Virus record (IMG/VR): IMGVR_UViG_2534682078_000009 | DNA length: 10,083 bases | DNA from: a virus | Taxonomy: Duplodnaviria; Heunggongvirae; Uroviricota; Caudoviricetes | Reading direction: 5' to 3' (one strand) | Position numbers: made by a program | Shown: in pieces, positions 3,001 to 6,000 of the stretch | How positions within the stretch are numbered: position 1 is the first letter of the stretch | Layout of the letters: every line of letters starts with the position of its first letter

Positions 3001-6000
3001 TCAAACAGAACTCGCTACGTGCCCTTAAAACTCGATCATTTAGCCCCTCCAAGGAGGATTCACCATGCGGTTGATTTTTTAATAAACAGTAAACAAAAAA
3101 GTCAAGAATTATTCATTCTGTTCTTTCATCATCGGCCACAGCAATACCACAATGCCGCAGACCAGAGCGCCATCAGTCAGTACCAACATTATCCTGCTGG
3201 TGAAATCCATCATCACCATCACTAAAAGCAGGATCACAACAGCAAGCAGACACAGTTTATAAAACAATGTTCAGAAAACGCATTCAGCATGCCTAAGGTT
3301 CTATTCCTACGAATAGCCAACTTGCAACTTAAAATATTATTTATGCAGCCAATTAAATTCTGGTCCTTACAATATCAACCTGAAGATTCTTATCTTGTGC
3401 TGATTGATAAATGACAAACCTTTTACTACCTGCATTGAAAGAAGTAGACAAAACCAGACAATTATCATAACGAGCAAGAACATAATACCAACCATCATTA
3501 TAATTAATCATTTCATATTCTTTCTTAAACTGTGGTTTGTAATATCCTGTCAAAAATGAAAAAAGCCAAAAATATGCCACAAAAGCAATCATCACAATCT
3601 CAAAAAAATGTTTTTTTATAAATGGCTTATCATAGAAGCATGATACCGATAAAAATCGCCCATAAGATCTTATCGAAATTGTAACCGCCAGCGCAATCGC
3701 TGCTGACAGTAGCAAAAGAGGTACCTGAATCTTCTGTCTCAATATAGAAAACTCAATAATTGCCGGCACAAACAATAATTCCACAGCAAAATAAAGGCGA
3801 AATACATTTAGCTCTTGCATAGAATGTTTTCTTTTCACTGCGAAAAAGAATACAACACCAATACCCCAACCGATAAGAAATATAGCAATGACGATAACTG
3901 CAAAAAATAAACTTCTGGCAACATCATCAACACCTGCACCTACAATCCACCATGGGAAGCCGTAGTAAAAAGAAGTACCCCATCCATAGAAATAAGCACT
4001 CCCCCATCCAAGGCATCCCATGTAGGCAATAAAAAGTGAAGAACTCCTGAGCAGCGCACCATCCTTCATAACCACCCCAATACAAGATGATAACATTGGC
4101 TTACAACTCATAACAAAAGCAATTCAATGCCGTCAAGAGGTTACAGGCTAAAAAAACTCTATTACATAGCAGCCAGCATGTTTACCGTACAAGTACAACT
4201 CAGGGCATAAAAAAAACCCACTCGGCAGCGGGTTTATACATTTTTTACAACATACCAAATTTGCATGAAGTATATGGCTTTTAATCCAGTTTTGCAATAT
4301 TTTGCTGTAAAAATGCTGCCTTTTGTTTTGAACGTGTTCTCGTCACAAGCAATAAAGCATCACTATCAAGCTGTAGAAAAATGTGCTTCATTGCAACCCA
4401 GCGTTCAGTAAATGTCTCGGACCAGTTTTTTGTTGTCACTCCCACCAATGATGCCAGTGTCTGGTATTCATAGGCCTCACGCCCTGCAAGTTCGCTCTTC
4501 ACATCCTGTGCAGCCAGCCAGATTAACGTCTTCAGGCGATCCAGTGTCTTACCTGCAATTTTTCTGTTACTTAACAAATCTTTAAACTCGCTCCATGCCC
4601 ATTGCGTTATGGTGACCTGATGCCCCCATCGAACGCTTTCGCTGTAACACCAAAGCAACCATGCTTTCTGATGTTCATCGAGAGACAAAACCGCGCGGCG
4701 CCATGAAGAGGTTGAGAATTCAACCGGGCTGACCAAAGCAATGGATGAACCTTTTGCGTACGACTGCTTACCGGAAGTCGGCGTATTATCCAGCGTAATC
4801 ATCTTGCCAGTTACCACATCCAGAATGCGCGGCTTCTTTCGTTTGTATGTACCAGTATCAAATTGTGCATGCTCCTGCCAGGCTTCGAGCTGGCCTTTCG
4901 TTGCTCCGTTCAAGTCAGCAGTAGCTGCCATAAGTTGCTCACGAACATACTGTAAATATTGGGTATTCATGCAGTAAATCCTTTCTATATTTTGGCATAA
5001 TTCTTCAACATTCGGTAATCGTTCAAAACCGAATCGGGGAAACGACATAAGCACACGAGCCCCCAGCGACAGCGAAGGAGTTCTGATATATAAGACTCAG
5101 ACATCATTCATTCCCCGGTTCTCCAATATCTGTTTCACTCATCATCCATAACTACCTGTAATTGCCCCCCCCTTTTTTTGTAACAGTTCTTATATTGCTA
5201 TATAGAATAGCCATTACTAATGCTTTTAAATTTAATAAAATAAAAATTATAAAAAACATAAAACACCACGCAAACACACTTAATAAAAACACCGTTACAT
5301 TAAAAGATAATAAAAACCGCAATAAAAAACGAATAAATCAATTGTCTCACGCAATTATAAAACATCATATTGATTACGCACCTTGTATTACAAACTCATG
5401 TATGTAAAATACGCGCACCATTCAAAAAAAAGGAAGACAATAACATATGAAAAAAAGTGTCATCGCTGGCGTCTTTATTGCTCTGTCATTTACCACGTGT
5501 TCAGCTATCGCGAACAGCCTTGCATTATCATTAGCAAATGATGATGCAGGGAAGTTTCAACCAATACTTAATGATATTTATGGCAATAAACATGAAAACA
5601 GAGATGATTACTCACAAGGCTTATTTCTGGGATATAGCCACGATATCTCAGACTCGAGCCAATTATCTCTCCATATTGCGCAAGATATTTACTCTCCATC
5701 AGGCAGTAATAAAAGACACAACACAGCTGTAACTGGAGACAGAGCTTTTAGTGCATACACTCACACTGGTATTGAATGGAACTCCCTTGCGAATGACTGG
5801 ATTCGCTATCGATTAGGTACTGACATAGGTGTTGTTGGCCCCGACGCAGGCGGTCAGAAAGTACAAAATAAAGCTCATGAGATTATTGGGGCAGAAAAAT
5901 ATCATGCATGGGATGATCAAATAGAGAATCGCTACGGTTATACTGTAAAAGGGATGCTATCCATGACACCAAGTATGGATATTTTAGGTGCTAATGTTGG

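Follow-up and report, generated by a model that had tools for sequence, protein, structure and literature searches.

Several cargo genes of lambdoid prophages, namely LpxR, nanS-p, and Bor/Iss (the last in phage 434), are generally taken to benefit the lysogen in the animal host, and P22 SieA, T4 Imm, and HK97 gp15 serve as models for membrane exclusion. In Salmonella, the single gene STM1630 (SL1344_1560) has been published as one of 92 genes outside Salmonella pathogenicity island 2 (SPI-2) that are co-regulated with it. According to Canals et al. (2019; PMC6785131), this gene has an H-NS binding site, to which the lack of transposon insertions in it is attributed, is expressed in SPI-2-inducing medium and in macrophages, and has a mapped -10 element that is destroyed in all ST313 strains tested, so that the promoter is inactivated. 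The same article cites a report of attenuation (Morgan et al. 2004) from infection screens of calves and chicks, and states that deletion in strain 4/74 raised intramacrophage replication. The TfpY/FimB-like pilin accessory proteins, in turn, are small proteins of the inner membrane, 235–245 aa in length, with three transmembrane (TM) helices, a short cytoplasmic N-terminus, and a periplasmic, beta-rich C-terminal domain; they contain no enzymatic motifs and are proposed adaptors that help to start type IV pilus assembly in piliated, host-associated Proteobacteria (PMC11841053). Here, we describe a member of the STM1630/TfpB family in a viral DNA stretch of 10,083 nucleotides (IMG/VR record IMGVR_UViG_2534682078_000009; Duplodnaviria, Heunggongvirae, Uroviricota, Caudoviricetes), the whole of which is referred to below as the window. 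The gene lies on the minus strand, directly behind the late promoter and terminator of a lambdoid prophage, and we tentatively read it as a lysogenic-conversion gene for a periplasm-facing inner-membrane protein.

The initial annotation had placed a gene at 3353–4111 of the window, and the open reading frame (ORF) is present there on the minus strand, encoding 252 aa from its first ATG. Its stop-free run extends over 256 codons; in 2,000 shuffles of the same 900 nt, such runs averaged 75 codons and never exceeded 167, and the ORF is not a product of chance. In pairwise comparisons with six homologues, the ratio of nonsynonymous to synonymous substitution rates (dN/dS) was 0.12–0.20 wherever dS could be computed; this STM1630/TfpB-family ORF is therefore a protein-coding gene under purifying selection, which, together with the long open frame, backs the original gene call. 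The G+C content, earlier described as markedly lower than that of the neighbours, is indeed 36.0% (30.1% at third codon positions), against 46.1% in the Q gene, 55.6% in nanS-p, and 45.8% in the whole window. The true start is almost certainly the ATG at 4069 (MKDG..., 238 aa), because homologues of 237–238 aa from many contexts all begin there; the other in-frame upstream starts are at 4096, used by RefSeq and in phage 434, and at 4111, used by the initial annotation. The GGG of a Shine-Dalgarno-like element in front of ATG 4069 (Table 1) is kept at the same position in the homologues.

The statement that no family could be recognised for the protein does not hold: its family is catalogued and is widespread in Escherichia coli and Shigella. 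Residues 31–252 of the ORF matched PHROG 1521 (E 2.1e-154), the precomputed Pfam tag PF27470 'TfpB' is attached to the 100%-identical protein cluster and to each of the close homologues, and at least one relative appears in NCBI RefSeq as 'STM1630 family protein'. Each of these three labels comes without an assigned function, and the source names are all 'hypothetical' or 'membrane protein'. Our own scans of the protein against Pfam and NCBIfam returned no family, in the former case because the Pfam copy used predates PF27470 and has no model for it, and scanning 22 diverse members singly against Pfam, PADLOC, and the PHROGs added nothing. The Pfam name presumably goes back to the tfpB ORF of the Moraxella pilin inversion region, a possible member of the family; no named Moraxella match occurred among the family hits. 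A literature search for PF27470, WP_001302581, or a relevant 'TfpB' found nothing. The Salmonella homologue is 46% identical over 238 aa, full-length and collinear, and the oligonucleotides published for STM1630 (a deletion primer and a promoter oligonucleotide) have exact matches in its locus, inside and upstream of the gene.

The family is small: only 73 clusters at 50% identity were recovered when 1.84 billion representative proteins were searched exhaustively with its profile, and a search for related loci with the closer alignment returned six species representatives. Named members occur in Enterobacteriaceae (Escherichia, Shigella, Salmonella, Citrobacter, Cronobacter, Klebsiella, Enterobacter, Yersinia, and Mangrovibacter), Pasteurellaceae (Avibacterium, Mannheimia, Actinobacillus, Pasteurella, Gallibacterium, and Haemophilus ducreyi), and animal-associated Neisseriaceae (Neisseria animaloris, N. 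zoodegmatis, N. arctica, Conchiformibius, and Uruburuella). Complete E. coli genomes carried a family member in 1,197 of 5,426 cases, and an allele at least 99% identical to that of the window was present in 679 of the 5,426, including O157:H7, O111, and O145 strains.

The target gene was found in about ten settings, in which it always moves alone, and it is mobile single-gene cargo. A 1.4-kb segment around it is 100% identical to a prophage beside ybhC in E. coli O111:H- strain 11128 and to many Shiga toxin-producing E. coli, and 99.9% identical to the classical phage 434; the protein is 100% identical to CPT_434_68, the 'putative membrane protein' of phage 434, and 97.9% identical to a 'Phage protein' of phage 2B8. 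The best 80 matches in an IMG/VR scan were all 100% identical copies, so that no independent contexts were obtained from IMG/VR. Within prophages, the family occurs after Q in three different backbones. In the window and phage 434, and apparently in phage 2B8, the gene stands directly after Q, the late promoter pR', and the terminator tR', and the initial annotation was thus right in placing it as phage cargo just behind promoter and terminator; nanS-p and the lysis genes follow farther downstream (coordinates in Table 1). In the second backbone, a 68%-identical copy follows Q, a DNA methylase gene, and two tRNA genes, and is itself followed by a convergent LpxR gene and nanS-p, with PmrD also present in one genome. 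This copy lies exactly between the Q-methylase-tRNA block and nanS-p, a site that we take to be the stx position of Stx phages, in keeping with the earlier claim that the gene occupies the stx slot. In the third backbone, a copy lies directly after a different Q. Other genes hold the same position in other prophages.

Outside phages, the company of the gene is varied. On plasmids of porcine and human enterotoxigenic E. coli (ETEC), a copy lies 866 bp from the heat-labile toxin (LT) genes eltAB, in divergent orientation; a 59%-identical homologue is a fixed divergent neighbour of eltAB in the porcine ETEC loci (5001–5714 in L098–L101 and 6001–6714 in L097), and the ETEC copy belongs to a block bounded by insertion sequences (IS) that also holds the STb and EAST1 genes. 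In Shigella, 106 plasmid records covering all four species, including pWR501, carry an intact copy. In S. flexneri pWR501 (L096, 6001–6717), both flanks of the intact homologue consist of degraded IS elements, and the survival of an intact gene amid such remnants suggests that it is retained by selection. At the ends of pap (P-fimbrial) operons in islands of extraintestinal pathogenic E. coli (L108, 4866–5105; L109, 3989–4705), a full-length copy or a C-terminal fragment lies immediately downstream of papX or of a gene for a MarR-type regulator. In an island near iroB/iroC and bor, a phage terminator remnant (tR') remains upstream of the copy, which therefore derives from a prophage. The Citrobacter rodentium copy is divergent from a split LpxR gene, the Salmonella homologue adjoins sseJ (one contig examined), and the copies in Neisseria, Avibacterium, and Mannheimia are solitary among housekeeping genes. 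LpxR is thus a neighbour in three arrangements (the window, C. rodentium, and the second prophage type), which hints, though not decisively, at an envelope theme. A role as partner or activator of LpxR was considered and set aside, with these three contexts and no further support.

The gene is dispensable for phage growth according to the published record. In the genome announcement of phage 434, the viable laboratory variant 434B is described as having approximately 5.5 kb replaced by DNA of the DLP12 prophage, a replacement that takes in Q, the late promoter, and the lysis region. The target gene lies inside the span of approximately 4.6 kb (41277–45846 of the 434 record) that is annotated as non-homologous to 434B, and since 434B is viable with the whole segment replaced, its growth does not depend on this gene. 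The gene itself goes undiscussed in the phage 434 genome paper.

The architecture of the protein was examined with AlphaFold2. A first model, built from 22 close homologues, had a predicted local distance difference test score (pLDDT) of 58 and was set aside; a model from a 63-sequence alignment, to which Pasteurellaceae, Neisseriaceae, and distant enterobacterial relatives had been added, reached a pLDDT of 81.5 and a predicted template modelling score of 0.75. The latter contains helices at residues 10–36, 47–79, 84–111, 116–137, and 155–181, two short helices within loop 4, and five beta strands between residues 184 and 235. The 'about five hydrophobic helices' and the hydrophilic tail of roughly 60 aa that had been seen in the sequence thus reappear as five helices followed by a beta domain of approximately 57 residues. 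Mean Lys+Arg counts over the 63 sequences alternate along the chain (N-terminus, 1.5; loop 1, 1.1; loop 2, 3.4; loop 3, 0.8; loop 4, 4.2), and by the positive-inside rule loops 2 and 4 should be cytoplasmic, as should the N-terminus. From the model and these counts, loop 1, which is rich in glycine and aromatic residues (GWGSAYFYGWGxSFYYGFPWW), and the C-terminal beta domain are predicted to face the periplasm, and the topology check proposed at the outset gave, by prediction, five TM helices, an N-in orientation, and a periplasmic C-terminal domain.

Conservation follows the same plan throughout the family alignments: it peaks in TM1–loop 1–TM2, the most conserved part of the family, and in TM5 with the C-terminal beta domain, with TM3 and TM4 variable. 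The residues that are invariant or nearly so family-wide are Y26, G175, Y195, G31, G37, P39, A15, and A25; no conserved Asp, Glu, His, Ser, or Lys, and no other acidic or basic residue, was found across the 63 sequences. This lack of conserved catalytic-type residues argues for a binding, blocking, or adaptor role and not for an enzyme. Most likely, the protein acts by binding an envelope component, which could be a sensor, a protein machine, or the head group of a lipid or glycan. No enzyme family was matched in the Pfam and NCBIfam scans of the protein, nor in the Pfam scans of 22 members. The envelope modification suggested by the initial annotation is accordingly unlikely in any enzymatic form, the family-wide invariants being only Tyr, Gly, Ala, and Pro, and Gtr-like or other enzymatic modification was set aside.

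Structural comparison did not place the fold. The model had no relative among viral models (BFVD structure search; best E 0.037 over 66 columns) or among solved structures (Foldseek against the PDB; best E 0.52), domains of the SH3-like type gave only partial and non-significant matches to the C-terminal part (E about 1), and a PDB sequence search with the single protein had no match. The sole PDB profile match, to the membrane domain of MCR-1 (E 0.76), was dropped as hydrophobic noise.

Two routes of expression can be proposed. Upstream of ATG 4069, two overlapping candidate promoters were found: P1, with a -35 hexamer TTGACG (4136–4131), an 18-nt spacer, and TGT plus TATGAG (4115–4107), and P2, with a -35 hexamer TTGTTA (4116–4111), an 18-nt spacer, and TGT plus TATCAT (4095–4087). 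A TTGAC-N18-TGnTATG box, which includes the TTGAC of P1, and a TTTGT(T/A)ATG element are shared by the window with the ETEC-plasmid, iro-island, and second-prophage copies; synonymous sites between the copies that share the box are saturated (proportion of synonymous differences, 0.64–0.82), and the box is retained all the same. The presence of these promoter-like boxes in non-phage copies makes expression in the lysogen plausible. The predicted P1 and P2 transcripts would start downstream of ATG 4111, and that of P2 also downstream of ATG 4096, which again favours ATG 4069. Transcription after induction would depend on Q, because the gene lies behind pR' and tR' and the established biology of lambdoid late operons should apply to it. 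No convincing terminator was found between 3353 and 3267, that is, between the end of the gene and the next.

Taking these observations together, we propose that the target gene is a self-contained lysogenic-conversion gene whose product is a non-enzymatic, periplasm-facing protein of the inner membrane, which is expressed from its own, probably H-NS-silenced promoter as well as through Q, and which aids the host bacterium in animals. We give this joint reading a probability of roughly 45%; the functional part is far less certain than the assignment to the family, the status as cargo, or the architecture. The 238-aa protein would span the inner membrane five times from a cytoplasmic N-terminus, would expose its aromatic loop and its small C-terminal barrel on the periplasmic side, and would bind an envelope partner there instead of catalysing a reaction. 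The phage would have no need of the gene and would carry it because of an advantage that it gives the lysogen in an animal. In the first route, a sigma-70-type promoter between tR' and the start codon, probably silenced by H-NS because the DNA is AT-rich, as published for Salmonella STM1630, would be released under virulence-inducing conditions; in the second, Q-mediated read-through of tR' would follow prophage induction. The topology, the non-enzymatic action, both expression routes, and the host benefit are what we infer from the comparisons above. The published STM1630 data suggest, by analogy, a contribution to host colonisation and membership of a virulence regulon, and to carry the H-NS, SPI-2, and calf and chick data of Salmonella over to the window gene is an extrapolation.

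Several points weigh against this reading. Promoter-like sites are no more numerous in the region than in shuffled sequences according to our scan, so the promoter evidence stays at the level of patterns, and the mapped Salmonella -10 element lies approximately 200 nt upstream, not at the box conserved in the E. coli copies. The Salmonella phenotypes, as given in PMC6785131, are modest and mixed: replication in macrophages went up rather than down, and in D23580 there was no effect. Hypermotility of an STM1630 mutant in a deletion-library screen (PMC4219756) was not reproduced with clean deletions (PMC4534456), and was therefore dropped as evidence. LpxR adjacency is limited to three of about ten contexts, and the association with virulence loci may only mirror the behaviour of AT-rich, IS-flanked mobile DNA. 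The literature found yields no experiment on this protein or on any E. coli, Shigella, or ETEC copy, and a function stated in the Pfam PF27470 entry would have escaped our analysis.

A broader form of the proposal is that the STM1630/TfpB proteins constitute an unrecognised class of single-gene, mobile inner-membrane colonisation modulators, which would act as non-enzymatic adaptors, would tune a conserved envelope machine or sensor through the aromatic loop and the beta barrel while the bacterium is associated with its host, and would have been spread by phages, virulence plasmids, and islands together with toxins and adhesins (the Stx slot, LT, Pap, SseJ, and pINV). We consider this generalisation doubtful, and a new single-protein mechanism of phage exclusion, the alternative to colonisation modulation, less likely.

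Superinfection exclusion, or another single-gene membrane defence that blocks genome entry or triggers abortive infection, is the alternative that survives best, although we judge it unlikely. The target gene is phage-dispensable prophage cargo, accessory genes are known to reside in and around the first cargo slot of late operons, and the product is a polytopic inner-membrane protein whose conserved elements are predicted to be periplasmic; the candidate promoter of the gene would permit expression in the lysogen, and plasmid-borne copies are found, as for many defence genes. However, none of the 5,027 PADLOC models matched the protein, and 22 members gave only three single-member hits (E 0.014–0.022); these 2023 models cover known and candidate defence, and a new defence could escape them. 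The contexts point the same way: the Neisseria, Avibacterium, and Mannheimia relatives stand alone among housekeeping genes, outside defence islands, the Salmonella homologue lies beside sseJ and is co-regulated with SPI-2, and retention of an intact gene on plasmids of four Shigella species and beside the LT genes is a pattern commoner for host-interaction genes. With PADLOC null and the relatives solitary or at sseJ, no evidence favours superinfection exclusion or abortive infection, and none of the functions proposed in the initial annotation gained support.

We regard as improbable that the protein is an accessory factor of a surface organelle, such as a pilus, fimbria, or secretion system, acting in the manner of TfpY/FimB. 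The Pfam label 'TfpB' hints at this, the size and the N-in/C-out layout resemble those of the TfpY-like proteins (PMC11841053), the Neisseriaceae and Pasteurellaceae that carry the family are piliated mucosal bacteria, and copies occur at the ends of pap fimbrial operons. The resemblance stops at the layout, however, since TfpY-like proteins have three TM helices, carry a larger domain of mixed alpha/beta structure, and are encoded beside a major pilin gene, where the target protein has five helices and a small barrel. Moreover, the named hits among the 73 representatives include no Pseudomonas or N. meningitidis homologue, the only Acinetobacter name belongs to one partial protein, 55% identical, from a metagenome-assembled genome, no pilin gene adjoins the family in the contexts examined, and no sequence link was detected.

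Slightly more improbable still is that the gene encodes an orphan immunity protein acting at the periplasmic face against a membrane-targeting toxin, either a pore-forming colicin or microcin or an effector of a type VI secretion or contact-dependent inhibition system. A small, polytopic inner-membrane protein without catalytic residues, encoded by a solitary mobile gene in a family confined to dense host-associated communities, would suit such a role, and the PHROG of the neighbouring DUF3927 gene bears a colicin-resistance label. Against this, no toxin gene was adjacent in about ten contexts, neither Pfam nor NCBIfam gave a match to an immunity family, and control by a virulence regulon, as in Salmonella, would be unexpected. 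To our knowledge, the immunity proteins to pore-formers are also shorter and lack a beta domain. Finally, a holin- or antiholin-like role in lysis timing or another late function, to which a membrane protein encoded by the first gene of the late transcript might seem suited, was set aside as very improbable: two or three genes, among them DUF3927 and nanS-p, separate the gene from the holin/endolysin cassette, most family members are on plasmids or on chromosomes without nearby phage genes, 434B grows without the gene (its lysis cassette was swapped simultaneously), and five helices with a beta domain resemble no holin class that we know of.

The remaining features of the window are those of a lambdoid prophage (Table 1). 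On the minus strand, it reads as a nin-to-late region in the order NinB, NinE/F-type genes, YbcO, RusA, NinH, YlcG, and Q82-type antiterminator, with LpxR on the plus strand between NinH and YlcG, and continues with the late promoter, the terminator, the target gene, a DUF3927/TciB-like gene, a small ORF with a terminator, and nanS-p. The Q ORF is open back to a GTG at 5054, the start given by RefSeq and in the phage 434 annotation being 4970, and its nucleotide identity to phage 82 Q is 94% to the end of the phage 82 Q record. The pR' candidate overlaps the Q stop codon, and its hexamers would act as the late promoter, given the architecture of lambdoid late operons. The phage 434 record annotates the same terminator at 42034–42059. 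In lambdoid phages, tR' stops a short late leader transcript unless the polymerase carries the Q modification. Promoter and terminator here delimit such a leader of approximately 55–60 nt (4206–4262, minus strand), for which the 6S RNA of lambda and StxS, a small RNA of Stx phages, are analogues; an Rfam scan of the whole window found no RNA family.

Table 1. Positions of the target gene, its parts, and neighbouring features in the window
Feature	Position	Strand	Basis or remark
STM1630/TfpB-family inner-membrane protein, coding sequence (238 aa + stop)	3353..4069	-	ORF call, PHROG, homologues, model, dN/dS, shuffles
Shine-Dalgarno-like element GGGGTGG	4072..4078	-	Sequence; ends 2 nt before ATG 4069, GGGG core 5 nt before
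Residues 10-79: TM1, Gly/aromatic-rich loop (GWGSAYFYGWGTSFYYGFPWW...DDVARSL), TM2	3833..4042	-	Alignments, conservation, model
Residues 182-238: small C-terminal beta domain of five strands, at best SH3-like	3356..3526	-	Model
Two overlapping candidate own promoters, P1 and P2	4087..4136	-	P2 from scan; P1 read from sequence
Intrinsic terminator tR', 9-bp stem AAACCCGCT/GGTGGGTTT followed by T-run	4206..4235	-	Terminator scan
Candidate late promoter pR' (-35 TTGCAA, 17 nt, -10 TATACT)	4269..4297	-	Consensus scan; position relative to Q and terminator
Q82-type late antiterminator gene	4281..4970	-	Pfam PF06323 Phage_antiter_Q, E 1.7e-91; PHROG 304
DUF3927/TciB-like small membrane protein (52 aa)	3109..3267	-	Pfam PF13064, E 3.4e-14; PHROG 1470
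nanS-p-type sialate O-acetylesterase gene	960..2810	-	Pfam DUF1737 + SASA + DUF6645; marks downstream edge of cargo slot
LpxR lipid A 3'-O-deacylase cargo gene	5447..6406	+	Pfam PF09982, E 6.8e-40; divergent from the Q-target unit

Downstream of the target gene, PHROG 1470 labels the DUF3927 product 'TciB-like inhibition of cell division or resistance to colicin'. In one other prophage, a DUF3927 gene lies approximately 3 kb from the homologue, adjoining a TerB-family gene; it was not called beside the remaining homologues examined, and is mostly not co-inherited with the target gene. The small ORF at 2864–3052 (minus strand) is named 'putative membrane protein' in phage 434 and may be no real gene; it holds a strong GC-rich terminator (2923–2905; GGCTGCGCATTGCGCAGCC plus a T-run), just upstream of nanS-p. 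On the other side of Q, the LpxR gene is AT-rich (39% G+C) and is inserted in opposite orientation between ninH and ylcG-Q; in the literature, lpxR is counted in the Ler regulon of enterohaemorrhagic E. coli (EHEC). A short N-terminal remnant of a lambda-type Q lies at 6550–6621 (minus strand), just downstream of ninH, in the RefSeq and phage 434 annotations, and its presence beside a working Q82-type gene suggests that the original Q and late region gave way to a block that holds LpxR, ylcG, Q82, and the cargo genes. At its right end (9770–10083, minus strand), the window carries transposase fragments of an IS3-family, IS1203-like element. IS copies also break the lysis region of the prophage in O111 strain 11128, which is therefore probably defective. 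The first 318 nt of the window, which hold an ORF of 86 aa (42–302), remain unaligned to those O111 prophages that are 99.9% identical to the rest of it. A 68-aa ORF in the early/nin region (9123–9329, minus strand), 'hypothetical' in RefSeq, has two predicted hydrophobic helices (MAELIFSALRILGAMWMVATFIVV...).

The gene is already catalogued, as a phage 434 gene and under PHROG, Pfam, and NCBI names, and is no new kind of element; as it stands, it is a well-defined experimental target and not a discovery. About one in five complete E. coli genomes carries a member of the family, which is common in EHEC, ETEC, and Shigella, yet has no assigned function. If it proved to be a factor in colonisation, envelope resilience, or phage exclusion, this would account for its location at the cargo site that is induced most strongly in the late operon, and would add a widespread, overlooked lysogenic-conversion function.

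Among the known systems, SieA, Imm, and gp15 share with the target protein that they are phage-borne, non-enzymatic inner-membrane proteins with a periplasmic face, but the target protein has no sequence or profile similarity to known defence families and the distribution of its family is not centred on phages. The likeness to the TfpY/FimB-like proteins, which we compared by description, is one of architecture only, in size and N-in/C-out orientation, against the difference of three TM helices and a larger two-part domain versus five helices and a barrel of approximately 57 residues. STM1630 shares the 238-aa length, the five helices and beta domain, the AT-richness, the occurrence as a single gene beside virulence genes, and the lack of a known function, but it stands beside sseJ on the Salmonella chromosome and not in a prophage late operon, and its published -10 element is approximately 200 nt upstream of the start. 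The lambdoid morons (bor/iss, lom, LpxR, stx, and nanS-p) are likewise extra genes of deviant composition between late genes, dispensable to the phage, with candidate promoters of their own and, for stx, presumably the same slot; the window gene differs in that its own promoter is recognised from a sequence pattern and in that it is at least as common outside phages. The closest counterpart is phage 434, where the gene occupies the same site, after a Q82-like antiterminator and terminator and before TciB and the SASA esterase; there is no material difference between the two, and the window carries the same gene in an EHEC-type prophage, which in O111 lies at ybhC.

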